A stretch of DNA of 64,000 nucleotides from NCBI GenBank assembly GCA_024233835.1, contig JACKPC010000001.1:1285442-1349441 (forward strand), in the 5' to 3' direction. Shown here piece after piece: positions 2 through 57,785 of the stretch; position 1 is the stretch's first letter, and the number at the start of each line of letters is the position of its first letter. Under the pieces are notes generated by a model, which did not search any database, was not told where the DNA came from, and saw only the letters and a program-made list of their open reading frames with translations. Source of the stretch: Leptospiraceae bacterium (lineage in GTDB: Bacteria > Spirochaetota > Leptospiria > Leptospirales > Leptospiraceae). A program made the position numbers and the translations under genes.

Positions 2-3000
2 CCTACCGTATCGGGTCTTCTGGGAAGTGGCTTACAGCTTTCCGATGGAACGAATACGATAAGCCCCACAGCCAATGGTAGCTGGGCTTTCCCGGCAAGG
101 GCTTCCGGTCTCAGTTATAACGTGACAGTGGCAACACAGCCAACAAATCCCTGGCAGACCTGCTCAGTTACAAACGGTAGCGGGACTTTAACCGTTTCTG
201 ATGTGACGAATGTAACAGTCAGTTGTGTTACCAACACCTATACGATGGGAGGCACAATCAGTGGTTTTGGTTCGGGAACGGACTTAAGTATAACGGATGG
301 AGCCGGTAATACATTGACCCTGCCTGCAGGAAGCAGCACCTTCACTTTTCCCCTGCGGGATAGTGGCAGTAGCTACAGTGTGACTATTGCGACCCAGCCG
401 ACTTCTCCCTGGCAGACCTGTACGGTGACCAATGGTAGCGGTAATTTAACAAATGCGAATATAACGAATGTAAGTATTAGCTGCACTGTGAATACCTATA
501 CCATGTCGGGTTTTATATCGGGACAGGCAAATACTTCGACTTTAATCATCAATAATGGTACAGCCAATGTGACTCTTACCGGTCAGTCGAGTGACTACAA
601 TTATACGGAAAATCTAAACAGTGGCACTTCGTACAACTATACAATAGTGCAACAACCTCCGGGACAGTACTGTGTATTTGTCATGCAGACCCTACTTTCC
701 GGGACTGTGACAAACTCGAACCTTAACAACTTCGGCATCAACTGTGTGAACGGCTATCTGGTGAGTGGTCATATACAACAAAATCCACCGGCTCCGATTA
801 ATATGCACCTGTATCAGGGAAATGTGACTACCCTTGCGGGTAATGGAGTAACCGCAGGTACAGCCGACGGAACGGGTGCTGCGGGACAATTCAATACACC
901 TTCAGGAATCACATTCGATGGAACCTATTTTTATGTTGCTGATACAGGTAATCATAAGATAAAAAGAATTGATTCGAGTGGAAATGTAACTTCTATAGCA
1001 GGAAATGGAATTGCAGGTAATACCGATGGATCCGGGACTTCCATCTCTTCCTTAAATAGTCCAAGAGGGCTTACTACCGATGGAACCTATCTTTATATTT
1101 CAGAATCAAGTGGTAACAGAATCAAAAGGATGCGAATCTCAAGCGGATACGTGGAGACTCTTGCGGGTGATAATTCCGTTGTCTCACCTGCTGCGTCAAC
1201 TCTTGATGGCATAGGAACAGCGGCAAAGTTCAATACGCCTGCGGGAATTGTGGTAGATGGAAATTCTTTGATTATCGTGGAACGAGGTTCCAATGCTATT
1301 CGAGAATTAAATTTGAATACACTTTCTGTAAGCACACTAACAGTCTCAGGAGCAGCATTAAATCAAGCAGAAGGTATCGCACTTGTTGGGAACTACTTGT
1401 ATATTGCTAATTTAAATAGTCATAATATACTAAAAGTTGATAAAACTTCGGGTGTTTCCGTGGTCCTCGCCGGTGGAGCTGCGGGAGAGGTCGGGTATAT
1501 CGATGCTGTAGGTACCACTGCAAGGTTTAATCATCCACATGGGATTGTATCTGATGAAGTTAATCTTTATATAGCCGATTTTGATAATAACCTGATTCGG
1601 CAGCTAGAAATCAGTAGTGGAAGAGTAACAACTCTTGCCGGTACGGGAACAGGTGGAACATCTACCGATGGAATTGGTATCGCAGCTACTTTTAATAGTC
1701 CCAAATTTATGACCAGTGATGGAAAGAATCTGTATGTTGTCATGCATCATGCTATCCGCAAGCTCACCAACAACGGACTTGTGGGTTACTGGCCGCTTAC
1801 TACAAGTGCTGCTGACCATGCCGGAACAAACAACGGAACTTTATATAATTCGCCCGCTTTTACCGCTGCTGATAGATTTGCTGTGGCAAACTCTGCAATC
1901 ACTTTCAATGGCTCAAACCAATTTATTGAAGGTTCTGACTCCGGTTTGCCTTCAGGAGGAAATCCAAGAACAAGTTGTGCCTGGATAAATCCACAGGCAG
2001 TTATTAATGGACTGAGTCTTGTTTTTACCTATGGAACAAATACAGCTTACGGTGGACATGGTATTGCTATAGCAGGAAATGGAACTAAGTTAACCGGAAT
2101 TATGAGTTCCAATTTTGGTGGTTCTGATTTTACAGCACCTTATAACTTAGCAACAAACCAGTGGACACATATTTGTACTACTTATTCCGGCAGTTCAGCA
2201 GGAAATGTTGTGGGAGTTTATGCAAACGGAAAACTCATAGGACAGACTACAACAGGAAACTGGAATACAACTTTATCCGGTCTAATGCGAATAGGTAGCC
2301 AGATCACTAATGCACAGTATTTTAACGGCAATATTGCCGATGTTCGAATCTACAGCCGTGTGCTGAATGAAGGCGAAATCAACGAGCTGGCACAGAATGC
2401 TGCACCCGCACAGGTAGGTTCTACCTACAGCACAGGGGCAACGGGGCTATTGGCAGACTTCCATCTGGATGGTGGTAGTAACAATAGTAGTGGTGCTATT
2501 CCTGATCTGGGTCTTACGGGTTCAACTGGTGGTAATTTCCTCGGTAAGGATGGTGATGCAAATGGATCACGGATGTTTGATATATCCAGTAGTAATACAC
2601 TTAGCGGAACTACGCTCGGCCTTCCTCTTGGTGGAGCCCCTAGAACATTGTGCACATGGATAAATCCTGTATCTTACCCTCCTCCCGGAGGTGGTATTCC
2701 CGGCTGGTATTTTGCTGCCGGTTATGGTGGAACCAGTACAAGCTCTGCTTTTATGGTAGGTGTTTATAATAACTCAGGAATCATCAATCTAACCCTGGAT
2801 TTTGGAAATGATTCAGTTATGGCAGCCTATAATCCGGCACTGAATACCTGGACTCATGTTTGCGGAGTTTACGATGGCAGCACCGCTTATCTTTATGCTA
2901 ACGGTATGTTGTTGAATTCTGCTGCAAAATCCATCAATACAACAACGGGAAGTTTTACTATTGGAGCAAATACAAGTGGCAGCAGTTTTTTCAATGGAAA

Positions 3001-4405
3001 GATAGACGATGTTCGCATCTATAACAATGCACTCAACCAAACGCAAATCCGCCAACTTGCTACACAGGTTCCGACAGGACTTGTGGCCAGATATGATTTC
3101 AATGGAGACGCGAATGATGTAAGTGGATTTGGTGCTAATGGAACTGTATATGGAGCAACACTGACAAGTGACAGGTATGGAAACAGCAATTCAGCTTATA
3201 ATTTTAACCACAATAATCAAAACTACATTGAGGCTCCTCAACTGTTTTTACCTACCGGTTCAAGTTCCAGAACATTATGTGCTTATATTAGACCTCAAAA
3301 TTTACCTCCTACTGCACCGGATCCTCAAAGAGCTGTTTTATATTATGGCACAGCAACTACCAGCGGTGCCAATGGTTTAATCTTTGCATTTGATTATGAA
3401 GTGGCTGTTGCAGGTTATGCAGATGATTTAAGCTTAACCTATCGAACATCTCAAAATACCTGGAATTTCTTTTGTGGTACCTTTGATGGGTCTACAGCAA
3501 GATTGTATTATAATGGAAGGGAATTAATTAATGGAACAAAATCCTGGAATACGGGAACTGGAAATTTCTTTATTGGTAAAAGCTTAAGTACGGTTTATTT
3601 TAATGGAGATATAGACGATGTTCGCATCTATAATCGTGTCTTAACCGAATCGGAAATCCGTGCTTTAAGCGGCTATCATCCGATGCAGGTGACAAGCTGG
3701 AATCCGACGGTTGCCAGTAGTAGTTTACAGTTCCACGTTGCTGCTGATAGTTTTAGTAACCAGGCCGATAATACTACTGTCGGAAACTGGCCGGATATAA
3801 GCGGAAATGGCTTTTTAGGCACCCAATACAACGGGCCAGTTTTTAGAACTGGAGCTAATGGCTTAAATGGTAAACCGGCGATACAATTTAATGGTACTAA
3901 TCAATATTTTGATTTCGGTGCTCAATCAATAGCTTATAATGGTGCAACAGTATTCGCTGTGGCGAAAAATTCCATTTCTGATTATATTGGTAGACCGATA
4001 TTAAGTTATGAACTTGCTTCCGGAGGTTGTGTGACCAGAGTAAATTTGGAAAAAGATTTCACCAATCCGACAAATTATTATTTTGAAGGGCCGGCAAGTA
4101 GTGCGACAATTTCTGCAACTTTAAATGAATCACTTATATTAACCGGTATTCTTGAAGGAACATCCGCGCCAATTAAATTAGCTAAAAACGGAAACGCAGC
4201 TACTTCTGGAGCAAATGTTTCCCTGAGTGGGAATAATTCGTGTAATTTGCGTGCAGGTGGGAGAACAGACACAGCAGATAGATTTCAGGGACTCATTAGC
4301 GAGATCCTGTTATTTAAAGAGGCACTCGGTGTTCCCGACAAAGACATCGTCGAGTGTTATCTCTCTTCTAAATACAATATCCCTATCGGGCATAGCTGTC
4401 CGTAA
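2..4405 (+). CDS. Very large secreted multidomain protein, 5' partial. The reading frame is open back to the window edge. It has N-terminal Ig-like tandem repeats (TxATQPTxPWQTCxVTNGSG), a 6-blade NHL beta-propeller and 4-5 LamG / concanavalin A-like (Laminin_G_3) domains.
   Basis: The frame upstream of the ORF-track Met at 122 translates as ...LSYNVTVATQP, matching the internal repeat SYSVTIATQP, so the protein is truncated at the window edge. NHL motifs appear as FNTPxGIxxDGxYLYxAD..NxIxRxD, six times. LamG signature D(D/A)VRIY(N/S)RxL(T/N)xxEI appears four times, each preceded by YxF/LxGDxxDxSG. Confidence 0.8.
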   Translation, partial: PTVSGLLGSGLQLSDGTNTISPTANGSWAFPARASGLSYNVTVATQPTNPWQTCSVTNGSGTLTVSDVTNVTVSCVTNTYTMGGTISGFGSGTDLSITDGAGNTLTLPAGSSTFTFPLRDSGSSYSVTIATQPTSPWQTCTVTNGSGNLTNANITNVSISCTVNTYTMSGFISGQANTSTLIINNGTANVTLTGQSSDYNYTENLNSGTSYNYTIVQQPPGQYCVFVMQTLLSGTVTNSNLNNFGINCVNGYLVSGHIQQNPPAPINMHLYQGNVTTLAGNGVTAGTADGTGAAGQFNTPSGITFDGTYFYVADTGNHKIKRIDSSGNVTSIAGNGIAGNTDGSGTSISSLNSPRGLTTDGTYLYISESSGNRIKRMRISSGYVETLAGDNSVVSPAASTLDGIGTAAKFNTPAGIVVDGNSLIIVERGSNAIRELNLNTLSVSTLTVSGAALNQAEGIALVGNYLYIANLNSHNILKVDKTSGVSVVLAGGAAGEVGYIDAVGTTARFNHPHGIVSDEVNLYIADFDNNLIRQLEISSGRVTTLAGTGTGGTSTDGIGIAATFNSPKFMTSDGKNLYVVMHHAIRKLTNNGLVGYWPLTTSAADHAGTNNGTLYNSPAFTAADRFAVANSAITFNGSNQFIEGSDSGLPSGGNPRTSCAWINPQAVINGLSLVFTYGTNTAYGGHGIAIAGNGTKLTGIMSSNFGGSDFTAPYNLATNQWTHICTTYSGSSAGNVVGVYANGKLIGQTTTGNWNTTLSGLMRIGSQITNAQYFNGNIADVRIYSRVLNEGEINELAQNAAPAQVGSTYSTGATGLLADFHLDGGSNNSSGAIPDLGLTGSTGGNFLGKDGDANGSRMFDISSSNTLSGTTLGLPLGGAPRTLCTWINPVSYPPPGGGIPGWYFAAGYGGTSTSSAFMVGVYNNSGIINLTLDFGNDSVMAAYNPALNTWTHVCGVYDGSTAYLYANGMLLNSAAKSINTTTGSFTIGANTSGSSFFNGKIDDVRIYNNALNQTQIRQLATQVPTGLVARYDFNGDANDVSGFGANGTVYGATLTSDRYGNSNSAYNFNHNNQNYIEAPQLFLPTGSSSRTLCAYIRPQNLPPTAPDPQRAVLYYGTATTSGANGLIFAFDYEVAVAGYADDLSLTYRTSQNTWNFFCGTFDGSTARLYYNGRELINGTKSWNTGTGNFFIGKSLSTVYFNGDIDDVRIYNRVLTESEIRALSGYHPMQVTSWNPTVASSSLQFHVAADSFSNQADNTTVGNWPDISGNGFLGTQYNGPVFRTGANGLNGKPAIQFNGTNQYFDFGAQSIAYNGATVFAVAKNSISDYIGRPILSYELASGGCVTRVNLEKDFTNPTNYYFEGPASSATISATLNESLILTGILEGTSAPIKLAKNGNAATSGANVSLSGNNSCNLRAGGRTDTADRFQGLISEILLFKEALGVPDKDIVECYLSSKYNIPIGHSCP

Positions 4406-4415
4406 GGGAATAAAT

Positions 4416-4443
4416 GCAGACGAGAAAGCATTTTCTCGCCTGC
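4416..4443. terminator. Bidirectional hairpin terminator between the two convergent giant genes
   Basis: GCAGACGAGAAAGC-ATTT-TCTCGCCTGC imperfect inverted repeat (about 10 bp stem). It lies exactly in the 58-nt gap between the stop at 4405 (+) and the stop at 4464 (-). Confidence 0.5.
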
Positions 4444-4463
4444 ATAAGAAGAATTTTAGCTCT

Positions 4464-7400
4464 TTATAATTCTCCCTGATACAGGGAGTATATTTCTGCC
4501 TCTGTGAGTTCTCTATTATAAATTCTCACATCATCTATACTTCCGATGAAATAATCAGTATTCACCGGGTCACCGGCAATGTAGAAAGTAGTAGCAGCTG
4601 AGTTAAAATCTTTAGTACTGTTAAATATGGTTGATCCATTTACTATAATTTTTCTGTTGGTTCCGGTATATAGAAAGCAGGTGTGATACCATGTTCCGTT
4701 GGTACAGGAATAGGAATTATACCAGGTTCCATTTAAAATATTTCGATTTAAACCTATCTCAGTGGAAGATAAACGAGCTGCAAAGTTTGCATTACTATTA
4801 TCTCCACTAAAAAAGATGGCACGATTGGTTGCACTTAAAGAGGAGGGTTTAATCCAACCGCAAACAGTACGGGCTTCCGCAGCCGAAGGAAAATGTGCAG
4901 CAGATGTGGTGATCCAATTGGTTCCACTAAAACTGTAGGCTCTGTTGGCTGTGCCGTATCTGTCTGTACTTGTTGTAGGAGTATTTACAGGAGTCCCGTT
5001 GTCGCTAAACCCGTCTCCGGCATACTCATCGGTAAGGCTTCCTGAATTAAAGGGGTAGTAAGCGAGCATTCCCTTATCCGGATCGGCAGAAAGGATTTTA
5101 ATTTCATTCGCAGTCAGGGAGCGATCATAAATTCGAAGTTCATCGATACTTCCATTCATGCCGATTCCTCCGAGGTCAGCTCTGAGACCGATTCTTACTA
5201 CCGATGTGTTAACCGTTCCGGGGCTTATCGTTCCATTTCCATCGGCAACACCATTGATGTAGAGTTGATAGGATTCTGAAGTCTTGACTACCGCCACATG
5301 TGTCCAGGTAGAAGCCGGAATGGTAGCTGTGCTATCTACGTTAAGACCGGTTCCGGTATTAATTAAGAACTGTAATATATTCGTTCCCATTATACGAAAT
5401 TCAACATGGTGTCCGGAAGTTGCATCATGCCAGGCAATAATCTCATCATCGGTTCCGGCTGCTGTCCTGTAGATCCAGGCGGAAATTGTCATATTCGTGG
5501 GTAAACTAAAATGGGTACCGAGACTGATGTAGCTCGAAGTACTTCCATTGAATGTAGCTACTGTAGAAGTATTCGAGTATCGATTGGAACCTAAGGAAAC
5601 CCCCGTTGCGGTTCCATGATTGGCATTAACGCTGGCATCATCATAATTCGAATCAAAAGGATAGTAGGCATATAAATTAGAAAAAGTATATTCTCTTTTT
5701 TGAGTATATAAGGTTTTCTTTCCGCTGAGATCCGAGACGACTATATTAAAGTAATAAGCTTTTTCTGCACTGAGTCCTGTAATATTTGCAGAAGTAGTTC
5801 CTGTATACGTATTAAACAGGGTTCCGAGTGTTTCGGTTGAAGAAAGCGAAGTAAGGCAGGGGTAGGTTGCATAGTAAACCTTATAGCTTAAACTTCCCGC
5901 TGCGGTAGCCAGGTCGGAAGCTGCATTCCAGCTTAAGGTAAGAGAAGTGGATGCCACATTGCTTGTAAATATATATCCGTTGGCTACAGTAGGGTTTGTG
6001 AAATCATATTGAGCAGAGGGAGAACTTTGAACTGCGGTTCCTGCGAGATTATATTGATCTTTGGGGGTGACTTCAAAGCGTATGTATTTACCATCGTCTC
6101 CGGCTACAAGGGTATAGGTAGTATTTGTAGCTCCTGATATAGCAGAACAGGTGCCGCTTGTAGTATCGGTACAGCGATACCACTGGTAGGCATGAGTTCC
6201 GGGAAGATGTCCATCCACATCGTTATAAGTAAAGGTTCCGCTGAGCACAGAGCCAATGTTGCTTCCTCCGCTAAAAGCTACCAAACTGGCAGTTGGAGGG
6301 TTATTGGCAGCTACAGTAACGCTTACTGTATAGTTCTGGGTGCTGGCATCAGCGGCTGTTACCACGTAGCTCAGGGGAGTTGAAAAGTTATTGGCTGTAG
6401 TTCCTGAAACCTGGTTGACTCCACCCACCGTAATGCTACTTCCGGAAATAGAAAAATTGGCTACCAGAGCCGTCACATTGGTGTTGTAAGGAACGGTAAT
6501 TGCGATATTCGTTCCGCTGATAATACCTGTAGCTGTGGGGGAACTGAAACCAAACGATATAATTTCTTTGGCCGATAGACTATTGGTATCTGTAATAGCA
6601 AGACTAAAGGGATTTGTGCTTTCTCCTGCCGAATTTTTAGTAAAAACCAGAAAGTGTGTGGCCCCTGAAGGGATGCTTGTATTGGTATTGAAAGTGTAGC
6701 TGAGGTTTGTACCTGTCGCCGCCAAATCAGTAATATGACTTAACTTCGTGCTACTATTCGTTCCCCAGTAGAGGGCGTAGGAAGTGATATTGGATTCATC
6801 AGAAGCTTTTCCTATAGTTAAAATTCCTCCGATTTTTCCAACAGAAACATCCGAGTCTGAAAAGTTTAAAGAAGAAGCAGTTAGAGTAGGTGGACTGATT
6901 AGATCCGAAATAGCCGTACTGACTCCTGTTGACATTTGAACGGTTCCATTTTTAGTAAAAGCAAGCAGGTGAGTTGCCATTGCGGGAATAGCAGTAGAAG
7001 CTAAGGTATAGCTAATATTTTGATTTGTTTTGGAAAGAATTGCGATGGGGTTTCCAATTATTTCTGTAGCGGAACTTCCAAAATAGACCGCATAGGTTGT
7101 GACATCTGTTTCATCAGAAGCTTTTGTAATAGAAAGATTTCCTGCAATATAACCCTTGTTTCCATCTGTATCGGTGAAGTTGAGGGCTTCAGCCGCATGG
7201 GTCGGAGAAGTAAAAACAACAGGTTTTGCATCGCTTCCATCTTCTCCAAAAGCAGTAACGGTCATGACCATAGTTCCTGAGGTAGCCACAGGAGTTGGTG
7301 GAGGTGTATCTGCTGTAATTGTTTCAGGCAGAGAAACCGAAATTTCACCTAACTCTACTCCTGACTCACTGACTATAGTAACCTTAAAACTTCCCGGATT

Positions 7401-8027
7401 AAGTTTCATTTCATATTGACCGTTTTCATCCGTAAGAAATTTGGCCTGTGTGTCATTAATAAGTTTATTGGATCCACTTGTTTCTTCTCCCTTCGTGTTG
7501 TTACCGGAGACTGCCAGAAGGTATTTGGCACCATTCGGGGGACTGGTTCCGAGGTTGAGCATATATATATAAGAGCTTGCCCCGGTTTTCCAGAGTTTTG
7601 TAATACGGGAGAGTTTTTGGTTTTCGGCAGATGCCCAATAAAGGGAGTAAAAATTTATTTCTGTTTCGTCTACAGCTTTTGCAATTTTCACTGGTCCGGC
7701 AATTTTTCCCTTCGTAGGATCAATGTCCACAAAGTCCAATTTACCCGGAGCTTTTTCACTAACAACGGAAGTTCCACCAGTAATTTCTTTTTTTACAGAG
7801 GTTGTCGTGGATAAACTTCCGGCACTCACATTTAATGAGGCATTCTTTACAGTTTCTCCACCAGGAGAAAGTAAATTACCTTTTATTGAATACACGGGTT
7901 TTGGAGAACTTTTTTGTGTATTAAAAGCGGTGATTCGTATTAAGTTATCCTTGCTACTGCCTTCCGGTAGAAATGGATTACAGTGGATTATGAATAAAAA
8001 AATTATATTGAAAACTATAAATTTCAT
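4464..8027 (-). CDS. Large secreted or lipoprotein adhesin-like protein. It has a signal peptide, three tandem Ig-like repeats of about 85 aa, a BIG-like domain, an Ig-like domain, FN3 and two C-terminal LamG domains.
   Basis: The ORF-track start at 8057 is probably 10 codons too long. An AAGGA RBS precedes the ATG at 8027 (MKFIVFNIIFLFIIHC...). Repeat units contain FxDxDxxKGxIAGxxxIxKAxDExxxTxYAxYxG ... THxLxFTKN. LamG signatures are DELRIYDRSLTANEI and DDVRIYNRELTEAEI. Confidence 0.8.
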   Translation of the reverse strand: MKFIVFNIIFLFIIHCNPFLPEGSSKDNLIRITAFNTQKSSPKPVYSIKGNLLSPGGETVKNASLNVSAGSLSTTTSVKKEITGGTSVVSEKAPGKLDFVDIDPTKGKIAGPVKIAKAVDETEINFYSLYWASAENQKLSRITKLWKTGASSYIYMLNLGTSPPNGAKYLLAVSGNNTKGEETSGSNKLINDTQAKFLTDENGQYEMKLNPGSFKVTIVSESGVELGEISVSLPETITADTPPPTPVATSGTMVMTVTAFGEDGSDAKPVVFTSPTHAAEALNFTDTDGNKGYIAGNLSITKASDETDVTTYAVYFGSSATEIIGNPIAILSKTNQNISYTLASTAIPAMATHLLAFTKNGTVQMSTGVSTAISDLISPPTLTASSLNFSDSDVSVGKIGGILTIGKASDESNITSYALYWGTNSSTKLSHITDLAATGTNLSYTFNTNTSIPSGATHFLVFTKNSAGESTNPFSLAITDTNSLSAKEIISFGFSSPTATGIISGTNIAITVPYNTNVTALVANFSISGSSITVGGVNQVSGTTANNFSTPLSYVVTAADASTQNYTVSVTVAANNPPTASLVAFSGGSNIGSVLSGTFTYNDVDGHLPGTHAYQWYRCTDTTSGTCSAISGATNTTYTLVAGDDGKYIRFEVTPKDQYNLAGTAVQSSPSAQYDFTNPTVANGYIFTSNVASTSLTLSWNAASDLATAAGSLSYKVYYATYPCLTSLSSTETLGTLFNTYTGTTSANITGLSAEKAYYFNIVVSDLSGKKTLYTQKREYTFSNLYAYYPFDSNYDDASVNANHGTATGVSLGSNRYSNTSTVATFNGSTSSYISLGTHFSLPTNMTISAWIYRTAAGTDDEIIAWHDATSGHHVEFRIMGTNILQFLINTGTGLNVDSTATIPASTWTHVAVVKTSESYQLYINGVADGNGTISPGTVNTSVVRIGLRADLGGIGMNGSIDELRIYDRSLTANEIKILSADPDKGMLAYYPFNSGSLTDEYAGDGFSDNGTPVNTPTTSTDRYGTANRAYSFSGTNWITTSAAHFPSAAEARTVCGWIKPSSLSATNRAIFFSGDNSNANFAARLSSTEIGLNRNILNGTWYNSYSCTNGTWYHTCFLYTGTNRKIIVNGSTIFNSTKDFNSAATTFYIAGDPVNTDYFIGSIDDVRIYNRELTEAEIYSLYQGEL

Positions 8028-8209
8028 GATTGAGTTTTCCTTTGAATTGTATAGCATATAAGACTATACTTTTTTTTATATTTCTATTTTTTTGACAATT
8101 ATTTTTAAAACTAAAATGCCCTAAATATAAATATGATTCGACACCTTAATGCTCGTAGAAAAATATTAGTTATCAACTGATTTATGAATTCAGGTGTTAA
8201 GGGATAGAA

Positions 8210-9038
8210 ATGAAAGAATTTTTCTTTAAAGAAGGAATTCACCCCAGTGCTATAGTGGAAGATGGAGCGAAAATAGGGAGTGGTGTTTCGATTGGAGCCT
8301 ATTCCGTTATAGGTCCCAATGTTGTACTGAAAGACGGTGTGAAAATTGCTCAAAATGTAATGGTTTCCGGGTTTACAACTATAGAAGAGGAAGCTGAAAT
8401 ATATCCATTTAATATAATAGGTGGCCCGGCTCAGGATCTGAAATACCTGGAGTATGAAGGAAAATTGAAGATTGGAAAAAAAGACTATTGTTCGGGAACA
8501 TACCAGCATACATGCAGGAACTCCTCATTCCGAACATCAGACGGTAATCGGAGATAGTGTCTATATCATGGCTGCCACTCATATCGGTCATGATGTTATG
8601 ATTGGTAATCATTCTATTATTGCAAGCGTTGGTATTGCCGGGCACGTAGAAATTGCAGACCATGTTGTTCTTGGTGCCAGAGCAGGTTTTCATCAGTTTG
8701 TGCATATCGGTCGCTTTGTCATGACGGCCGGTGTAGCAGCCTTCACCAAAGATGTACCTCCCTTTGCCATATCCGAACATGAAAGACCAAATGAATTTTC
8801 CGGCTTAAACGTTATCGGTTTGAAGCGTAATGGGTTTAAGAAGTCGGATATCCAGGAAATCAGGGAAATTTACAAGTATCTGTATTCTTTAAAAGGAAAA
8901 ATAAAAAATAGAACAGGTCCTTTACTGGAGAAATTTCCCGGAAGTGCTTACGCAAAAGAGATTGCGGAGTTCATTAATAAATCAAAAATGAATATCTGTA
9001 CTCCGGGAAGAAGGGGAGTCTCCTCGGAAGAAGAATAA
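8210..9038 (+). pseudogene. lpxA: UDP-N-acetylglucosamine O-acyltransferase LpxA, split into two overlapping frames by a 1-nt insertion in an A7 homopolymer at 8476-8482
   Basis: The left-handed beta-helix hexapeptide repeat protein aligns end to end with LpxA (IHPSAIVEDGAKIG...; ...IVREHTSIHAGT...MAATHIGHDVMIGNHSIIAS...FSGLNVIGLKRNGF). Deleting one A gives the continuous sequence KLKIGKKTIVREHTSIH, which parallels E. coli RVEIGDRNRIRESVTIH. Confidence 0.8.
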
Positions 9039-9091: not shown

Positions 9092-11476
9092 TTACTCTTT
9101 TTCTGAACGTATATATAAGAAAGAACCGAAAATTAAGAGTCCTCCTAAAATTAAAAAAGCGAATATTCGAACAATCGCATCCATTCTGGCCAGGTCGACA
9201 AAGAAAACTTTTAAAACTACTACTAAAAAGAGGGCAAGTCCTGTGTAGCGAAGAGCTTTTTCTTTTTTTTGAATTCCGTAGGTAATACAGGAAATGGCAT
9301 AGACCGACCACAAAACACTCACCGCACCTTTTTGCAAGCGAGGCATGAAATGTTCAAAAAACTGCCTTACTTCTAGAGATAAAAATTGGAATAAAAATAA
9401 AAGACCGATTACAGCAAAGTAGGATGGTCGTACTTTAGAATCTGAAGAAGTAAATCTTCGAAAGTTGAATATACTGAAAGCTATTACGAAAAAAGTAAAC
9501 CAGCGCAGGATAAATTCAAAGAAAGTATATTCACCCTTATACATTCCCATCCCCTCTCCGAACCAGACGGAAAAGAAAAGAACTGTAAAGCGAAATAATA
9601 CAAGAATAAGTAGTAGAATACCGATAGCGGAAAATAAAGGATTCTTTGTAGCTGTAAAATAGAAGTATATAAGGAAACCAAAAATACACCAGGTGGAAGT
9701 TATAAATAATTCTTTTACAGAAGAATTTATAAAGAAAGCATCGAACTCAGCGTTTAAGAATAAGAAAAAAGCAATGATTCCCATCCAGAATAGAATGGGT
9801 TTCCCCCTACCTTCCAGTTTTTTTAGAGTATGTAAATCATTTTTGTTATCAAAAATTGTTTCCCCGTATTGTTTGTGTTCAAGATACAAGCCAAGGAAAT
9901 AAGAAAGGATACTCGAACCGGTTCCGAGCATTCTGCCGATAAAACCCTGCCAGTAATTACCGGGTAGAGTATCAAAGCTTGCCGGAAGGTCGAGAAAAAA
10001 AGTGCGAAAGCCAAGGATTGTATAAGAAATATAAGATAAGGTAGAGAGAAAGGAGCTTCCAAGTTTTTTTCCAAGCCAGAGGAGAATAGCAGAAAACAGG
10101 GCCCAGGCAAAGGTTAAAGCTCTTTCTTCCAGGAATAAAGGCAGAGTTAAGCCGGTAAAAAAAACAGCCAGACCTAAGAGAGAAAGTGAAAGTGCTTTAT
10201 CTTCTATATTTTTCTTATAAAAGAAGTAGACATGAGCTATGTAGTATATTCCTAAAATATTACTGACAATAGAGGGATATTTACTTCCGTAGAGATGGTT
10301 AATATGGGAATAAGCGAGAATAAAAAATAGAAAGGCATTGCTGATAAGATGGATGATTTCCAGGGTAGTGCTTTTTTCTTTTTTTAGAATTTTGTAATAA
10401 TACGCAAGAGCAGAGTGTATTAGAAAAAAGATACACAAGAAAACCATATTTAAAATGAAATTTTCCTTTTGATTCTGATGGCTTCCTCCCGCATACAAAA
10501 GATAGGTAAAGAAAAATGCGAGGTAATTTAAAAGTCTCCAATTTTTAAAATGGGCGATACTCAAAATTCCAATGTTCAGAAGTAACATATACGTATAAAG
10601 AGTCGGAAGGTTGGCATTGCCGGTGCTTAAAAGGATGGGTGTAAAAAAGCCTCCGATAATTCCAAAAATCGCTACCAGCATAGAATTAGTATAGACCGAA
10701 ACTACCCCCGCTCCTACTGTAATCAATGCCATGAAGAGAAATTCCAGACCTACGGGAATCATTTGATAAAAGTGTCCGGCTGCATAGGTGCTAAAGTAAA
10801 AGGTCGCGATACCTCCACCCAATAGCCCTTGAGCTATCAGATGGTATTTTTTATTAATGAGCTTAATACCTCCTAAAAGCATCGCGGAAGCAGAAAGAAG
10901 ACCTATGAGTAGCCTTGCTGAGGGACCTATAAGGTTTCGTTCAATACTCCAATTCAAAACATAGACCAGGGCACTTACAATCGCAATGATTCCTATGCGT
11001 AAAAGCCAGGTGGTAGCTACTGCATATTCCACCGAACCTACCGGAACTTCTTCCTGTCCGTATAATATCCAACTTTTTATTTTAGATAAAGCTTTACTAC
11101 CGGTTTCCGGTTTCTCTTCCAAAATTTCCTGCTTAAAGAATACAGGTTCTCTTGAGACAGATTTTTCTATTACCTCAGGTTGTTTCTCTTCAAGTTTTTC
11201 TTCTTGAGGAGTAGCTTCAGCTTTTAAACTAACAAGCCCTGCAGGTGGTTTTGCTCTCACAGGTTCTTCTGAAGGAGGGCTGTATATTTTGGCTTCCGGA
11301 ACTTTTCTTGTTTCCGTTTTTTCTTCTTTTGGAATAGAGACTCCATTTTTTTTGAGCAGGGTTTCAATATCCCTTAATTGTTCCCTTTGTTTTCGTATTT
11401 CCTCTTTTAGTTGGCTTATCATAAAAAGAAGAATTACAAAAAAGATAAATAAAACTACAAAATATACAGCTTCCAT
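9092..11476 (-). CDS. Polytopic inner-membrane protein, DUF2339-like. It has one N-terminal TM helix, a coiled-coil segment and then about 20 TM helices.
   Basis: The hydrophobicity pattern is clear. The N-terminus reads MEAVYFVVLFIFFVILLFMISQLKEEIRKQREQLRDIETLLKK. Its ATG at 11476 abuts the stop of the upstream flotillin-like gene at 11477. Confidence 0.5.
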   Translation of the reverse strand: MEAVYFVVLFIFFVILLFMISQLKEEIRKQREQLRDIETLLKKNGVSIPKEEKTETRKVPEAKIYSPPSEEPVRAKPPAGLVSLKAEATPQEEKLEEKQPEVIEKSVSREPVFFKQEILEEKPETGSKALSKIKSWILYGQEEVPVGSVEYAVATTWLLRIGIIAIVSALVYVLNWSIERNLIGPSARLLIGLLSASAMLLGGIKLINKKYHLIAQGLLGGGIATFYFSTYAAGHFYQMIPVGLEFLFMALITVGAGVVSVYTNSMLVAIFGIIGGFFTPILLSTGNANLPTLYTYMLLLNIGILSIAHFKNWRLLNYLAFFFTYLLYAGGSHQNQKENFILNMVFLCIFFLIHSALAYYYKILKKEKSTTLEIIHLISNAFLFFILAYSHINHLYGSKYPSIVSNILGIYYIAHVYFFYKKNIEDKALSLSLLGLAVFFTGLTLPLFLEERALTFAWALFSAILLWLGKKLGSSFLSTLSYISYTILGFRTFFLDLPASFDTLPGNYWQGFIGRMLGTGSSILSYFLGLYLEHKQYGETIFDNKNDLHTLKKLEGRGKPILFWMGIIAFFLFLNAEFDAFFINSSVKELFITSTWCIFGFLIYFYFTATKNPLFSAIGILLLILVLFRFTVLFFSVWFGEGMGMYKGEYTFFEFILRWFTFFVIAFSIFNFRRFTSSDSKVRPSYFAVIGLLFLFQFLSLEVRQFFEHFMPRLQKGAVSVLWSVYAISCITYGIQKKEKALRYTGLALFLVVVLKVFFVDLARMDAIVRIFAFLILGGLLIFGSFLYIRSEKE

Positions 11477-13207
11477 CTACGCCTCGTCTTTTACTTTTAG
11501 AGCCTGTATATAGCTCAGGGTTTTTTGTATAAACGATGCCATATTATCAAAAAGAGGATCTGTTTTATCTGTTTGTAATACTCTAAATTCCTTGATTTCA
11601 GGCATGTTTTCTGCAATGCGGGGTAATTCTTTAATCAGTCTTAGGGTTAACTGTTCTGCATTCACTTTATTTCGGGCATCTTGTTTTAGGTTCTCTGCCC
11701 TGGCCATTAATTCTTCGTATTGATAATTAAGCTCATTTTCTTTGCGCTTGAATTCAAATTCTACATCTTTTGAGAGTTTTTCTTTTTCAAGGTTCAGGTT
11801 TAATTGCAGTAGTTCTAAGTCTTTCAGTAAATTTGTTTTGAATTTTTCAAAATCCAAGTTTTTTTCGTGTAGAATTTTTTCTCTTTCGAGTTTTTCTAAG
11901 TCTGCTTCTTGCCTAATTTTTTCGAGTCTGCGGTTTTCTTCTATGACAAAAAGCTCACGTTCTGTTTCTGCACGTTTTTCTTCCTGTTCTTTTACTTCTT
12001 GTTGTTTTAGTTCTTCAAGACTACGTTTTAGTTCAATTTCTTTTTCTCTACTTTTTAACCTGTTTTCCATTTCCTTTTTTGCGGTAATGGTTTCTTCTTC
12101 AAGCTTTAGTTTATGTTGTTCGTTTTTCTTTATGTCTTCATGCCGCTTGGAATCTTCCCTGAGACGGAGTTGTGTAGCTTCAGTTTCTTTTTCCTGCTTT
12201 GTTTTTTCAATTTCCAAATTTGTTTCGGCTGCTCTTGTTTCTTTTAACTGTCTTGTTTCCGCTTCTTTCTTATGAATTTCATTATCCATTTCTAATTGAC
12301 TGATGCGGGCTTTCTTTTTCTGTTCATTACGATAGGGGCTCTGCAAATCATTCCAGAGAGAGGCCGAACTAACAAGGGCTTCTCTGATTTGTACAGTTAT
12401 AATTTTTATTCCCAGACCTTCTTTTCCTTCGGCTACTCGGCTTAAACGAGAAGTTAATTCTTCAATCACAGGAGCTTTATCGGTTAGCACCTCTTCCACA
12501 CTCATCGTTGCAATTTTATCTTTAATTGCGGCCTCAGCCTGCTCGCGTAACTGTGCATTCACAATTCCTAATGGATCGTTAGAATTACTCAGGTCTAATT
12601 TTTTATAGGCTATAGAAAAATCATCAATTTGCCATTGCACATAGGCTAATATATTAATTCCCTGTTTTTCTTTGCTAATGCAGTTGGCCACTACACCTAT
12701 GGTTTGCATGGCAGCGGGGATAACTAAATAGGCATCGGTGCGAGGATTATAACGAAAGGAAATTCCAAGGCCGAGTGTAACGGGTTCTTTTCTATGAATT
12801 CGTGTATGAACCACATAGGCATTGGGAGGAACTATGACTCTTCTCCAAAACCATCTGCCTGTAATCCGAACTCGAATCGGTTCTTTTTCTAATTGTAATT
12901 CTTCGGATGATTTAATTCCTGAGTCAGGGAGATAGTTTTGTTTTCTGGGCATGGGTTTCCTCTCTTCACGTTTTTCTTCAATGTCATTTCTAAGTCTGAA
13001 ATCCGCAGCACCGCCGGGTGCGGGTGAATAAGCGATATTTTCGTTTACCGAAGCAGGCATATCCATCATAGCTTGCTGATAATATGGTTCTTCTGTAGCG
13101 GGCATTGGTTCCGGCATCGGTGCCTCGTCGTATTCCTCAAACGTATCTTCCATCGCTTTTGATTGCTGTTCGAGAAAGACTTCTTTTGCAGCTTTTCGTT
13201 TTTGCAT
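11477..13207 (-). CDS. SPFH / band-7 (flotillin-like) protein with an acidic, Pro-rich N-terminal extension and a C-terminal E/K-rich coiled coil of about 250 aa
   Basis: Band-7 core motifs: RVIVPPNAYVVHTRI..., QTIGVVANCISKEKQGINILAYVQWQIDD, ITVQIREAL. A long heptad-like EKxxEE region follows. Confidence 0.65.
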   Translation of the reverse strand: MQKRKAAKEVFLEQQSKAMEDTFEEYDEAPMPEPMPATEEPYYQQAMMDMPASVNENIAYSPAPGGAADFRLRNDIEEKREERKPMPRKQNYLPDSGIKSSEELQLEKEPIRVRITGRWFWRRVIVPPNAYVVHTRIHRKEPVTLGLGISFRYNPRTDAYLVIPAAMQTIGVVANCISKEKQGINILAYVQWQIDDFSIAYKKLDLSNSNDPLGIVNAQLREQAEAAIKDKIATMSVEEVLTDKAPVIEELTSRLSRVAEGKEGLGIKIITVQIREALVSSASLWNDLQSPYRNEQKKKARISQLEMDNEIHKKEAETRQLKETRAAETNLEIEKTKQEKETEATQLRLREDSKRHEDIKKNEQHKLKLEEETITAKKEMENRLKSREKEIELKRSLEELKQQEVKEQEEKRAETERELFVIEENRRLEKIRQEADLEKLEREKILHEKNLDFEKFKTNLLKDLELLQLNLNLEKEKLSKDVEFEFKRKENELNYQYEELMARAENLKQDARNKVNAEQLTLRLIKELPRIAENMPEIKEFRVLQTDKTDPLFDNMASFIQKTLSYIQALKVKDEA

Positions 13208-19354: not shown

Positions 19355-20092
19355 TTGCCAGAATTACTGAAGATTGTTAACCTACATGCGAATATAGAGG
19401 GTAAGGAAATTTTAAAAGGGGTCAATTTAGAGATTCAGGCGGGAGAGACCCACGCTATTATGGGGAAAAACGGTTCCGGCAAGAGTACCCTTTCCAATAT
19501 TATCCTGGGACATCCTTCTTATAAGATTACAGGAGGTGATATTCTTTTTAAAGGTGAGTCCATACTTTCTCTCAGCACCGATGAAAGGGCTAAAAAAGGT
19601 ATTTTCTTAAGCTTTCAATATCCTACGGCCATCCCCGGAGTCAATGTAGCCAATTTCCTGCGAACCATTTTACGAGCCAAAAGGGGTGCTGACATACCGG
19701 TTCGAGAGTTTCGTAAAGAACTGAACGAAGCAATGGAGGCCTTGCACATGGACAAATCATTTACTTCCCGTTATGTGAATGATGGTTTTTCCGGTGGAGA
19801 AAAAAAGCGGAATGAAATTTTACAACTCAGTCTCCTACAACCCTCGCTCAGTATACTCGATGAGCTGGATTCCGGTCTGGACATAGACGCTTTAAAGCAG
19901 GTCTGTGAAGGCATTAACCGTTATAAAAATGAAAATAATGCTCTTCTTCTCATTACCCACTACCAGAGGATGCTGAATTATGTGATTCCTGATTTTATCC
20001 ACGTTTTTGTAGATGGAAAAATTGTCATGAGTGGCGATAAACATCTGGCTCTTGAATTGGAAGAAAAAGGTTACGATTGGGTGAGTAAATAA
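19355..20092 (+). CDS. sufC: Fe-S cluster assembly ATPase SufC
   Basis: Walker [13 protein letters not shown] signature [13 protein letters not shown], SufC-like length and N-terminus. Confidence 0.9.
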
Positions 20093-20102
20093 GGAGACCC
20101 GG

Positions 20103-21332
20103 ATGAGTACAGCAACCCTAAAAAATCCTTCCTTACATGCTGAATTAGCAGTTCTCTTTCAAAGAACGGAAGAGATAAAGGAACCTTTCTGGTTGAAAGA
20201 ATTCCGAAGAAATGCTTTTCATGTTTTACAAAGGGTTCCGATTCCTAATGCAAGCCTGGAATCCTGGAGGAAGCTTTCCTTATCTAACTTAAAACTGGAA
20301 AAGTTGATCCAGCACTGGAAGTATTCAGAAACTTATTTTACGGAAAACAGAGGAAATTGTCTGAAAAGGTTCTCTGAATTGAATCCCGGAGAAGAAGAAT
20401 TTCTTAGGAAAAAACTCGATTTTCTTCTGGAATACTATTCGGAGAGTTTTTTTAGCTTACTTAATTTTAGTTTTTTCACCTCGACCTGTTTTTTGGAACT
20501 TTCTGAAAAGAATCATATAGCCGGTATTTTTTCAATTTTGGAAAATCATTCCGAAGCCCCCTTTCTTCCTTTAAATATCATTAAAATTGGAAAGTTTGCG
20601 AAAGCAGTAGTGAAAGAAGAAACCAGACTTCCTGCGAATGAAGATTTAGAACTTTACTGTCCTTTTACGGCTCTTTTCTTAGAAGATTCTGCTAATATAG
20701 ACTTCATAAGCTTAGAACAACTTTCCGATTCAAGCTTTCACTTTAAAACCTTTTATTCTTCCCAGGAACAAAATTCCCATTTAAATCTTTCCTACTTTAA
20801 CCTGGATGGATATAGAGGGAAAACCTTTTTTGATTCGGACCTCAGGGGAGAAGGGGCAAATATTTTTTCTTTTGCTGCGATTGGCACCATACAACGCGAA
20901 GTGCAGGATGTGGAATTCAGTATTCGTCATCTGAAAAGTTATACAACAAGCAAGCTTTTGATGAAGGCAGTCGTGCGGGATAAGTCGCACCATATTTTTA
21001 CCGGAAAGCTCTGGATTCCTGCCGGCTTAAAACATGTACAGGCCAGTCAATTAAATAATAACCTGATTTTGGACCCAAAAGCCCGTGCTGAATCCATTCC
21101 CTGTCTGGAAGTTTTTTCGGAAGATGTGAGTTGCTCTCATGGTGCTACTATGGGAGAGATAAAAGAAGAGGAATTATTTTACTTAATGTCGAGAGGACTC
21201 AATGAAGAAGAAGCCCGCGCCCTGATACTGGAGGGATTTTTAGCTTCTATAACCGACAAAATTCCGAATGAAAAAATTTCCTCCGATATACTTGAGTCCT
21301 TACTCGAAAAATTGAACTCTAAGGGTAGATGA
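20103..21332 (+). CDS. sufD: Fe-S cluster assembly protein SufD (SufBD family)
   Basis: The C-terminal SufBD beta-helix region includes GATMGEIKEEELFYLMSRGLNEEEARALILEGF. It sits between sufC and sufS. Confidence 0.75.
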   Translation: MSTATLKNPSLHAELAVLFQRTEEIKEPFWLKEFRRNAFHVLQRVPIPNASLESWRKLSLSNLKLEKLIQHWKYSETYFTENRGNCLKRFSELNPGEEEFLRKKLDFLLEYYSESFFSLLNFSFFTSTCFLELSEKNHIAGIFSILENHSEAPFLPLNIIKIGKFAKAVVKEETRLPANEDLELYCPFTALFLEDSANIDFISLEQLSDSSFHFKTFYSSQEQNSHLNLSYFNLDGYRGKTFFDSDLRGEGANIFSFAAIGTIQREVQDVEFSIRHLKSYTTSKLLMKAVVRDKSHHIFTGKLWIPAGLKHVQASQLNNNLILDPKARAESIPCLEVFSEDVSCSHGATMGEIKEEELFYLMSRGLNEEEARALILEGFLASITDKIPNEKISSDILESLLEKLNSKGR

Positions 21333-21333
21333 A

Positions 21334-21645
21334 ATGGCATTTGTAAAACTGGCAGAGACAACAGATTTTGAAGATATAAAAATGAAAATTGTGGAAACAA
21401 AATTTTTTCGTGTTGGCATTTTTAAAAACACAGATACCTATATTGCTTTTGAAGATGTCTGCACTCATGATGGAGAACCCATTTCAGAAGGGGAACTCGA
21501 CGATTGTATCCTGACCTGTCCCAGACATTTTGCCCAGTTTGACTTAAAAACTGGAGAAGCTCTCTGTATGCCGGCTACAGAACCCATAAAACTTTTCCCG
21601 GTTCGGGTGAATAGAACCGATATTGAAGTAGACCTGGAGGATTAA
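21334..21645 (+). CDS. Rieske [2Fe-2S] ferredoxin-like protein embedded in the suf operon
   Basis: CTH...(17 aa)...CPRH, the Rieske CxH/CxxH pair. There is a 1-nt gap to sufD and to sufS. Confidence 0.7.
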
Positions 21646-21646
21646 T

Positions 21647-22888
21647 ATGAGTCTTGACCCTTACAGACTGAGAACCGATTTCCCTATTCTTTCTACCAAA
21701 ATGAACGGAAAACCTCTGGTTTTTCTCGATAGTGCAGCCAGTTCCCAGAAACCTTTTCAGGTTATCGATGCCCTGGATCGGTATTACAAAGAGGAAAATG
21801 CGAATATTCACCGCGGAATTTATTATCTATCCCAAAAAGCGACCGAACTCTACGAAAAAACGAGGATTAAAGTTGCCGACTTCATAAATGCTCGCTGTGC
21901 AAAGGTTATTATTTTTACAAGAAATGCCACCGAAAGCATCAATATGGTAGCTCAGGCCTGGGGAAGGGAGAATATCGGTCGGGGCGATGAAATCGTTTTG
22001 AATGAACTCGAACACCATTCCAACCTCGTTCCCTGGCACATGCTGGCAAAAGAAAAAGGAGCCGTCTTACGGTTTATACCCTTAAAAGAAGATTCAAGTC
22101 TGGATTACAGTCAATTAGATGAAATTATCAACTATCGAACCAAACTGGTAGCTATATCTCAGATGTCCAATGTTACCGGAACCATGCATGACATTAAAAC
22201 GGTCGTAAAAAAAGCTCATTCCGTTGGAGCCAAAGTCCTTTTAGACGGAGCCCAGGGAGTCTGTCACATACCGGTGAATGTTCAGGAATTGGATATAGAT
22301 TTTTATGCTTTTTCTGCCCATAAGATGCTCGGTCCAACCGGTGTGGGAGTTCTTTACGGAAAAGAAAATGTGTTGGAAAGAATGTCCCCCTGGATGGGAG
22401 GGGGAGATATGATACTCGATGTAGAAAAAGACCGTTCTACCTATGCCGACCTTCCCGCTAAACTGGAAGCCGGAACGCCTAATATAGCCGGAGTTATTGC
22501 TTTTGCCGAGGCGATTGACTATCTTGAGGCGGTTGGACTTGAAAATATTCAAAAACATGAGCAAAAACTTACCCAATATGCCCTCGAAGAACTTTATAAG
22601 TTCGGAGGAATTGAATTATACGGAGTGGAAGATCTTTCTAAAAGAGGAGGGGTCATTTCCTTTAATATGGAAGGGGTTCATCCGCATGATGTGGGTAGTA
22701 TTTTAGACGAACAGGGAATTGCCATTCGAGTGGGACATCATTGCTGTCAGCCTTTTATGAAGAAATGCAAAATATCCGGTACGGCCAGATTGAGTTTCTA
22801 TCTGTACAATACCCTTGAAGATATAGATGCCTTTATTCATGGTTTAAAAACGGTGAAGGAGATCTTCGGCCGTGTCCTTAGAAAGTAA
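21647..22888 (+). CDS. sufS: Cysteine desulfurase SufS (class V aminotransferase, group II)
   Basis: PLP-lysine region [17 protein letters not shown] and the active-site Cys loop RVGHHCCQP. Confidence 0.9.
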
Positions 22889-23291
22889 GCTTTATTCTGA
22901 TTCTTTATTAGATATTTATAAGAATCTGGTATATAGAAAAGCAATGGAAAGCTATACTCACTTCAGCTCGAAAAAGAATCAGCTTTGTGGTGATGAAATA
23001 ACCGTTTATTTTACACTTCTCGAAAATAGAATAATCGATGCCTCATTTCAGGCAGAGGCCTGTATGCTCTGCACGGTTTCCGGAGAGATTCTTTGCCGGG
23101 AATCTATTGGAAAAACTTTTAAGGAACTAAACGAGATAAGTAAAAATTTGAAAGCTTATTTTTCAAACAGGCTGGAACTCGACCTGGAGCTCTCCCGGTT
23201 TCGGGCCCTGCTTACGGCCAGGCCTTATTTGAATCGGCATCGTTGTGTTTTTTTGGCCTGGGAAACTATAGAAGAAGTATTTCATACGTAG
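22872..23291 (+). CDS. sufU: SufU/IscU-like (NifU N-terminal family) sulfur-transfer or scaffold protein
   Basis: [24 protein letters not shown] and [11 protein letters not shown] align with B. subtilis SufU NPTCGD / EGCSIS / KCATLSW. Confidence 0.65.
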
Positions 23292-23306
23292 AAATGGAGA
23301 TATAAT

Positions 23307-23627
23307 ATGCTAATAGAACCTACAGGGGAACTGGAAAAGAAAGTTTTTGAAGCTATAAAACCTATAGAAGACCCGGAATTATATATTTCTTTGGTGGATC
23401 TGGGTTTGATTTATGAAATTCGCGTCGAAGGAAAAAAAGCTTTTATAGACATGACTCTTACCAGTATGGGCTGTCCGGCCGGCCCTTACCTGAAAACATC
23501 TATAGAAAATGAGGTTTTACGATTGGAGGAAATCGAGGAAGTGGAAGTGGAAGTTGTCTGGTCTCCTCCCTGGGATCCAAGAACCATGGCCTCCGAAGAA
23601 GCCAGAATGGATATGGGAATATTTTAA
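23307..23627 (+). CDS. sufT: DUF59 / SufT-like Fe-S assembly factor
   Basis: DPELYISLVDLGLIY...MTLTSMGCPAGP is a typical MIP18/DUF59 signature. Confidence 0.6.
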   Translation: MLIEPTGELEKKVFEAIKPIEDPELYISLVDLGLIYEIRVEGKKAFIDMTLTSMGCPAGPYLKTSIENEVLRLEEIEEVEVEVVWSPPWDPRTMASEEARMDMGIF

Positions 23628-57092: not shown

Positions 57093-57785
57093 TTATCCTC
57101 TATTTCCAAATACTGCCGAGCCTACCCGAATCAGACTGGAACCTTCTTCTATGGCCAGTTCCAGATCGGAAGACATTCCCATAGAAAGAATATCCATAGA
57201 TACACCTTCTATACCTTCTTTTATAATTTGTTTTTGTAAGTTTTTTATAATTTGAAAACTTTTCCGAATGAGAGTTTCTTCTTCCGTATTGGCTCCAATA
57301 GTCATGAGTCCTTTTATCCTGAGACAGGAGAGTTTAGAAACAGAGCGAAGTAGTTCGATAGCTTTTTCCGGCTCCATACCGAATTTACTTTCTTCGTATG
57401 AAGAGTTAACCTGAATCAAAACATTTATAGAACGTCCTTCTTTTTGCAGGTGATTCTCCAATTTTTCGGCTATGCTTAACCTATCTATAGACTGAATCGT
57501 ATGTGCGTATTTTAGAATATCTTTCACTTTGTTGGATTGCAAGTGGCCGATGAAATGCCTTTCAAATGGAAAGTGCTCGATAGCTTCTAACTTTTCTACT
57601 GCTTCCTGGACTCTATTTTCTCCGATTAAGTTTTCACCACATTCGCCTGCTATCAAGATTCTTTCTGCCGGGACGGTTTTAGTTGCGAGGAGTAGTTTGA
57701 CTTCTTCTTTTTTTCTTCCCGCTTTTCTACAAGCTTTTTCTATACGAGCATGGATAGTGGTTAAATTAGATTTAATGTCTTGCAT
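57093..57785 (-). CDS. yggS: YggS-family PLP-binding homeostasis protein
   Basis: LLLATKTVP (PLP-Lys), HFIGHLQSNK, GMSSDLELAIEEGS...VGSAVFG. Confidence 0.85.
   Translation of the reverse strand: MQDIKSNLTTIHARIEKACRKAGRKKEEVKLLLATKTVPAERILIAGECGENLIGENRVQEAVEKLEAIEHFPFERHFIGHLQSNKVKDILKYAHTIQSIDRLSIAEKLENHLQKEGRSINVLIQVNSSYEESKFGMEPEKAIELLRSVSKLSCLRIKGLMTIGANTEEETLIRKSFQIIKNLQKQIIKEGIEGVSMDILSMGMSSDLELAIEEGSSLIRVGSAVFGNRG

Follow-up and report, generated by a model that had tools for sequence, protein, structure and literature searches.

The window, by which we mean the whole 64,000-nucleotide stretch that was analysed, comes from an uncultured Leptospiraceae bacterium and contains a stand-alone lpxA gene, here designated lpxA2, whose reading frame is broken within a run of 7 adenines. 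The locus includes the following features (window coordinates):

8058–8209, plus strand: AT-rich intergenic region upstream of lpxA2, covered by a promoter and terminator scan

8210–8482, plus strand: 5′ part of lpxA2, codons 1–91, frame 2, from the conserved start MKEFFFKEGIHP through ...KLKIGKK

8476–8482, plus strand: A7 homopolymer at which the frame shifts; the in-frame version, GGA AAA AAG ACT (G K K T), is one A shorter

8483–8557, plus strand: out-of-frame tail DYCSGTYQHTCRNSSFRTSDGNRR and premature TAG (8555–8557), from the list of open reading frames (ORFs)

8469–9038, plus strand: 3′ part of lpxA2, residues 87–275, frame 3 (tblastn), with the stop codon at 9036–9038

The segment 8460–8500, GAAAATTGAAGATTGGAAAAAAAGACTATTG, holds an exact A7 run (8476–8482) with a G at either end. 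In a tblastn comparison with the window, amino acids 1–91 of the repaired protein matched 8210–8482 in frame 2 with 100% identity and amino acids 87–275 matched 8469–9035 in frame 3. The N-terminus aligns with those of the intact orthologues P0001–P0011. According to the ORF list, the frame 2 ORF (8210–8557) encodes 115 amino acids, of which the LpxA residues 1–91 are followed by an unrelated tail, and frame 3 has an open stretch (8472–9038) with the sequence ...KKTIVREHTSIHAGT...; in the 3′ part lie the THIGHD catalytic motif, the rest of the hexapeptide coils, and the C-terminal Acetyltransf_11 domain. No uninterrupted LpxA reading frame is thus present, the additional A at 8476–8482 cutting the product to 115 amino acids. 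A preliminary description of this DNA had proposed that the A7 run moves the LpxA frame from frame 2 to frame 3 and that deletion of one A restores the full-length protein. The tblastn alignments and the ORF list bear out the shift, and the repaired ORF encodes 275 amino acids and scores above the NCBIfam LpxA equivalog cut-offs (described below). In the public annotation, the 115-residue product is the hypothetical protein H7A25_05925 (MCP5499420.1, MCB1160271.1), and the 3′ half is the 188-residue hypothetical protein H7A25_05930, which starts at a TTG (8472) and has the cluster members P0012 and P0122; this annotation should be corrected to the 2 halves of one frameshifted lpxA. A tblastn search with the repaired protein revealed no further LpxA-like segment in the 64-kb window. 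In the upstream intergenic region (8058–8209), promoter-like sites occurred at chance level (5, versus 4.4 ± 2.3 in shuffled sequences) and no terminator-like site was found.

The repaired protein matches the LpxA family far above chance. It covers the equivalog models NF003657 (278.9 bits, cut-off 226) and TIGR01852 (265.4 bits, cut-off 231.05) from end to end, and comparison with Pfam revealed 4 stretches of PF00132 (Hexapep) and PF13720 at residues 181–263, so that it has both the β-helix of hexapeptide repeats and the C-terminal helical domain expected of LpxA. Alignments revealed that the residues H124, H127, and D128 (the H-x-x-H-D motif), Q75-D76-L77-K78, G144-H145, and H161-Q162-F163 are kept. 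The junction aligns without a gap against solved LpxA structures (IGKKTIVREH versus IGNNNLIREH of 4e6u), of which the Acinetobacter baumannii enzyme (4e6u) gave the best match (E 3e-52). On these matches, the repaired lpxA2 product is assigned to the LpxA family, and acyltransferase activity is predicted for it.

The closest homologues of the repaired protein form 12 clusters (P0001–P0011 and the partial P0013; counted in a set of 5.8 billion protein clusters), which are 59%–76% identical to it; below this clade, the identity in the protein search falls abruptly to at most 42%. All named members come from Leptospiraceae or Spirochaetota metagenome-assembled genomes (MAGs). In a genome-contig collection that lacks the window genome and its close relatives, the repaired protein found only distant LpxAs (at most 38% identity) from Synergistaceae, Verrucomicrobiales, and others. 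The alignment revealed that all LpxA-invariant residues, including H124/H127/D128, QDLK, GH, and HQF, are kept across the clade. Comparison with classical LpxA (acyl-ACP–UDP-GlcNAc O-acyltransferase; A. baumannii 4e6u and Escherichia coli 1lxa) revealed that (i) lpxA2 shares the equivalog models, the Hexapep and Acetyltransf_11 domains, and the motifs QDLKY and H-x-x-H-D; (ii) the clade differs by a one-residue deletion in one β-helix coil (“A-SVG”) and by a distinct C-terminus, KSK[RM]N[LI]C.P; and (iii) only the frame of the window copy is broken after residue 91. Leptospira interrogans LpxA (3hsq, UDP-GlcNAc3N-selective) belongs to the same enzyme family and comes from the same bacterial family. 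However, lpxA2 is not its orthologue: the match to 3hsq is much weaker (E 9e-35) than that to the A. baumannii enzyme, the motif QDLKY stands where Leptospira-type LpxAs have QDLGF, QSVGF, or QNIGF, and the C-termini differ. Whereas proteobacterial lpxA lies in an lpxD-fabZ-lpxA-lpxB cluster, lpxA2 stands alone in every context retrieved, with varying neighbours:

Window, 8210–9038: LamG surface protein and DUF2339 protein

L003, 1193–1999: fatty-acid desaturase and EF-hand protein

L028, 10001–10807: BT1 transporter and NDH-2

L032, 10001–10831: SH3 protein

The lpxA2 clade, which is the one mildly new element, is rare, confined to MAGs of Leptospiraceae and related Spirochaetota, and similar in appearance to classical LpxA.

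The preliminary description had listed a homopolymer sequencing error among 3 possible causes of the interruption. If the extra A were an artefact of sequencing or assembly, the true genome would have A6 and an intact gene; the 2,049,248-bp contig in the record of the window suggests that it was assembled from long reads, which tend to contain homopolymer errors. However, the exact frameshifted 115-residue product, tail included, is called on 7 further contigs (Logan SRR12358676, SRR14234133, SRR14234062, and SRR23493592; ENA ERZ27248703 and ERZ27309295; NCBI GCA_020440905.1). These contigs come from different runs, and several are short and fragmentary, as in short-read assembly. All 8 loci fetched, which derive from 6 or more sequencing runs or assemblies, have A7 and match the window at 100% identity across 770 to 14,659 bases; the 8 loci are clonal, possibly from one study system, and are independent as sequencing runs and not as populations. 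In addition, the 53 intact genes of the window (coding density 93%) contain 88 homopolymer runs of at least 7 (65 of 7, 16 of 8, and 7 of 9 or more), none of which breaks a frame, which indicates that the assembly is not prone to homopolymer errors. The recurrence of A7 on the 7 other contigs and the absence of any other disruptive run make a sequencing or polishing error very unlikely, and we reject that explanation. A near-identical intact (A6) protein was sought in a collection of 15 billion proteins and was not found, the best full-length match being 76% identical. At the assembly level, where A7 is the consensus sequence only, the disabling lesion is thus fixed in the population (A7 in 8/8 loci, and the intact allele absent from the protein collection). 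The accessions of these runs and assemblies were sought in the literature and gave no match.

Four short-read contigs (L049, L051, L050, and L047) end at window positions 8574, 8574, 8600, and 8726, 90–250 bases 3′ of the A run. We considered these ends as a mark of polymorphism and set them aside; no k-mers shared with co-occurring relatives that might explain them were found. The clustering probably reflects ascertainment, since contigs were retrieved only if they contained the whole 115-residue ORF and most of these are short, although microdiversity may contribute.

A second lpxA was sought with L. interrogans LpxA, the sequence of which was verified to be identical to 3hsq. Many Leptospiraceae MAGs were found to have a Leptospira-type LpxA, and none of the best 120 matches fell in the accession range of the window genome. 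One related MAG, GCA_039028475.1, has both types: lpxA2 (P0003, JBCCIA010000061) and a Leptospira-type gene (P0201, JBCCIA010000148), the latter next to an epimerase gene, with genes for Wzy and glycosyltransferases nearby. A second search with P0201 as the query, followed by reading of the cluster members, revealed P0346 (260 residues; MCB1157457.1 and MCP5501173.1), which reaches 311.8 bits with NF003657 and has 36% identity to repaired lpxA2. Clustering at 90% identity places it with P0209, a protein that shares 56% identity with 3hsq, and it is of the L. interrogans type. P0346 lies on JAGRNG010000159.1 of GCA_020440905.1, a MAG that also includes contigs JAGRNG010000419, 246, and 845, each matching the window at 100% identity; in ENA ERZ27248703, P0346 and window-identical contigs likewise occur together. 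In both NCBI submissions, its accessions are near those of the window proteins (MCB1158001–1160271; MCP5499420–460). The P0346 contigs have a GC content of 0.376–0.377 and a tetranucleotide correlation to the window of 0.970–0.976, compared with 0.973–0.986 for the window's own 8-kb pieces and 0.80–0.94 for contigs of other Leptospiraceae MAGs. On the basis of MAG binning, accession proximity, and composition, P0346 is assigned to the window organism as its second lpxA. The presence of intact P0346 in the same MAG makes the broken gene a second copy rather than the sole lpxA. The premise that an essential single-copy lpxA is broken was therefore wrong, and the search for an intact copy elsewhere in the genome, which had been suggested as a check, supports the suggestion of a pseudogenised paralogue. 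The lpxA2 clade and the Leptospira-type lpxA coexist in both of the MAGs (2/2) in which this could be checked.

The surroundings of the 2 Leptospira-type genes are alike. A polysaccharide-synthesis (flippase-family) gene lies 5′ of P0346 and an epimerase gene directly 3′ of it, as is also the case 3′ of P0201; in both MAGs, the lpxA is followed directly by a gene for an NAD-dependent sugar epimerase/dehydratase (L044, 3732–5493; L030, 3443–5203). The neighbourhood of the Leptospira-type lpxA is thus one of polysaccharide synthesis (flippase, Wzy, and GT4) and not the lpxD-fabZ-lpxA-lpxB arrangement of proteobacteria.

Apart from the frameshift, no lesion was found in the window lpxA2: the 3′ part is open over 189 codons and all clade-invariant residues are kept. 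The expectation that the copy would be degenerate elsewhere too was not borne out. The divergence from the sister sequence P0001 (dN 0.18) has a saturated dS, which makes the pairwise dN/dS uninformative; hence a relative-rate count was used instead, in which the window sequence has 12 unique changes and P0001 has 10 (columns at least 80% conserved in ten outgroup members). Relaxed constraint, sought as extra lesions or faster substitution in the window lpxA2, left no sign. From this sequence comparison, the window lpxA2 was under purifying selection for nearly all its history, and the lack of other lesions and of rate acceleration indicates that the mutation is recent; a broken gene without decay may also fit continued use. 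The preliminary description had also proposed a comparison of the A tract in relatives. At this site, the intact orthologues read GGT GAA AAT ACC, GGT AAA AAC AAT, or GGG AAA AAC AAT; none of the 3 that were read as DNA has an A tract of at least 6, the longest being A5, and at the protein level only P0011 keeps KK in the clade alignment. Since the orthologues lack the tract, both the A6 tract (GGA AAA AAG) and the frameshift are lineage-specific. The window also contains an intact mutS (57785–60334, minus strand) with all five MutS domains, and thus gives no hint that the indel arose in a mismatch-repair mutator.

The analysis shows a real frameshift, which is the sole lesion of lpxA2, and a second, intact lpxA in the same MAG. 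The best explanation, which we consider probable, is a recent +1A frameshift by replication slippage that inactivated a redundant lpxA paralogue, leaving an ordinary young pseudogene; slippage as the cause, the loss of function, and the functional redundancy are what we infer from the observations above. The bacterium has 2 lpxA genes, an intact Leptospira-type gene and the divergent stand-alone lpxA2. The latter would have gained an A6 tract in the window lineage, and this tract would have been extended to A7 by a single replication slip, the most frequent kind of indel in a genome of 38% GC; the A7 allele would then have become fixed in a clonal population. Translation would leave the frame after residue 91 and stop 25 codons on, and the truncated product would comprise the first third of the left-handed β-helix without the catalytic His and the C-terminal domain. 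Because the truncation lies before the catalytic His and the C-terminal domain, lpxA2 is probably inactivated, and its loss would be tolerated because the cell can rely on the other lpxA for the essential first step in making lipid A.

Haemophilus, Neisseria, Campylobacter, and Helicobacter offer classic examples of contingency loci among their lipopolysaccharide (LPS) and lipooligosaccharide (LOS) genes, and the window lpxA2 resembles such loci in having a mononucleotide tract that sets the frame of an LPS-pathway ORF. Phase-variable slippage, another of the 3 causes listed in the preliminary description, would make the tract an A6 (ON)/A7 (OFF) switch of an accessory lipid A acyltransferase, thrown by replication slippage, with the sampled populations mostly OFF. 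The perfect preservation of the rest of the gene agrees with a switch of this kind, and a minor A6 subpopulation might be concealed by the assemblies, which give only the consensus. However, A7 was found in all 8 loci from at least 6 runs with no tract-length polymorphism among the assemblies, no near-identical intact protein is present among 15 billion, and the tract is not conserved, being missing from the orthologues; mutS is intact in the window. The run is also short and ordinary for this genome, in which 37 A7 and 39 T7 runs occur in 64 kb (76 in total) and the 88 runs of at least 7 lie inside intact genes. The evidence does not support phase variation, which we regard as unlikely. The A-run, placed where the 2 frames of an otherwise intact gene meet, likewise recalls Thermus dnaX (A9), Shigella mxiE, and the poly(A) genes of Buchnera and Blochmannia, and slippage is known to rescue frameshifts in poly(A) tracts (PMC5009743, PMC1088944). 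In the window lpxA2, either slippage of RNA polymerase that shortens A7 to A6 in the transcript or a ribosome moving by +1 on A-AAA-AAA-G, where the Lys-tRNA could re-pair in the +1 frame, might allow low-level expression of a “pseudo-pseudogene,” and the fully intact 3′ part would be in keeping with it. By contrast, the known cases of rescue have conserved runs of about 9 or more, and the present run has 7 nucleotides and is found in one clone only. Selection against A or T runs is evident from nine nucleotides in many genomes (PMC1088944), and a run of 7 is below this threshold of about 9. The rescue would need the deletion of 1 nucleotide, whereas transcription errors at A/T runs are insertions and deletions are rarely tied to such runs (PMC5574713). 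The frameshift is present in no orthologue, all 12 of the 12 clade members being single ORFs in which the site varies; the codons that come next, AAA and GAC, are not stall codons, and no RNA structure was predicted 3′ of the site (fold z −0.60). We therefore consider rescue by slippage improbable, to a slightly greater degree than a phase-variable switch.

The 2 fragments might instead act together, with the 115-residue N-terminal fragment and a 188-residue C-terminal fragment, re-initiated at the TTG at 8472, assembling into an active LpxA. Both pieces are annotated as proteins by NCBI, and a Shine–Dalgarno-like AGGA (8458–8461) lies 10 nucleotides before the in-frame TTG. However, this AGGA is part of the conserved GAA GGA AAA (E G K) codons and is present in an intact orthologue too, the cut falls in a continuous β-helix, no clade member is split, and there is no evidence that selection favours a split form, which makes a split enzyme extremely unlikely. 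A broader proposal is that lpxA2 would be an undescribed accessory LpxA, found in environmental Leptospiraceae and of classical specificity (UDP-GlcNAc-type, QDLKY), beside the GlcNAc3N-type Leptospira enzyme, and that an A6/A7 switch or a leaky site would vary the primary acylation of lipid A; we give this proposal only a slender chance. Inactivation of a redundant paralogue by a single slip is thus the explanation that we retain.

Duplication of early lipid A genes has precedents. The lipid A pathway of L. interrogans is listed with one lpxA and with duplicated lpxD1/lpxD2, lpxB1/lpxB2, and kdsB1/kdsB2; which of these Leptospira duplicates are present varies from species to species, and where one copy is missing the other is assumed to complement it (PMC4758666). 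A lineage-specific duplication of lpxA itself is found in Geobacter sulfurreducens (PMC3087551). The 2 lpxA genes described here are likewise lineage-specific paralogues of an early lipid A enzyme. They differ from the Leptospira duplicates in that lpxA itself is doubled, in environmental Leptospiraceae, and in that one copy is newly inactivated and not absent. The window lpxA2 adds a further case to the turnover of paralogues in this pathway, seen just after inactivation.

The event itself has little weight for biology at large, being a textbook homopolymer indel in a redundant gene copy. It illustrates that a broken “essential” gene in a MAG does not necessarily indicate an error or the loss of LPS, and its study uncovered a small second clade of LpxA, restricted to Leptospiraceae, that occurs together with the Leptospira-type enzyme. 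Should the 2 LpxA types differ in sugar-nucleotide or acyl-chain specificity, one would expect the lipid A of environmental leptospires to vary with whether lpxA2 is present, absent, or inactivated; if they use different substrates, the loss of lpxA2 may alter lipid A.

Several other features of the window were observed. Two very large convergent genes (1427 residues, plus strand; 1197 residues, minus strand) occupy 122–8057, 5′ of lpxA2. They contain Laminin_G_3, NHL, and pentaxin-like domains and Ser/Thr/Asn-rich repeats and resemble surface proteins, and this 8-kb stretch is atypical in composition, with a tetranucleotide correlation of 0.69 to the rest of the window, compared with 0.97–0.99 for all other pieces. 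On the other side, at 9092–13207 (minus strand, convergent with lpxA2), there are genes for a DUF2339 multi-pass membrane protein (794 residues) and then for a Band_7/flotillin-like protein (576 residues) with a long Glu/Lys-rich coiled-coil tail. Farther downstream lies a suf Fe-S operon (19355–23627) that encodes a SufC-like ABC ATPase, SufD/B, a cysteine desulfurase, a NifU-like protein, and FeS_assembly_P, with a gene for a small Rieske-domain protein located between sufD and sufS.
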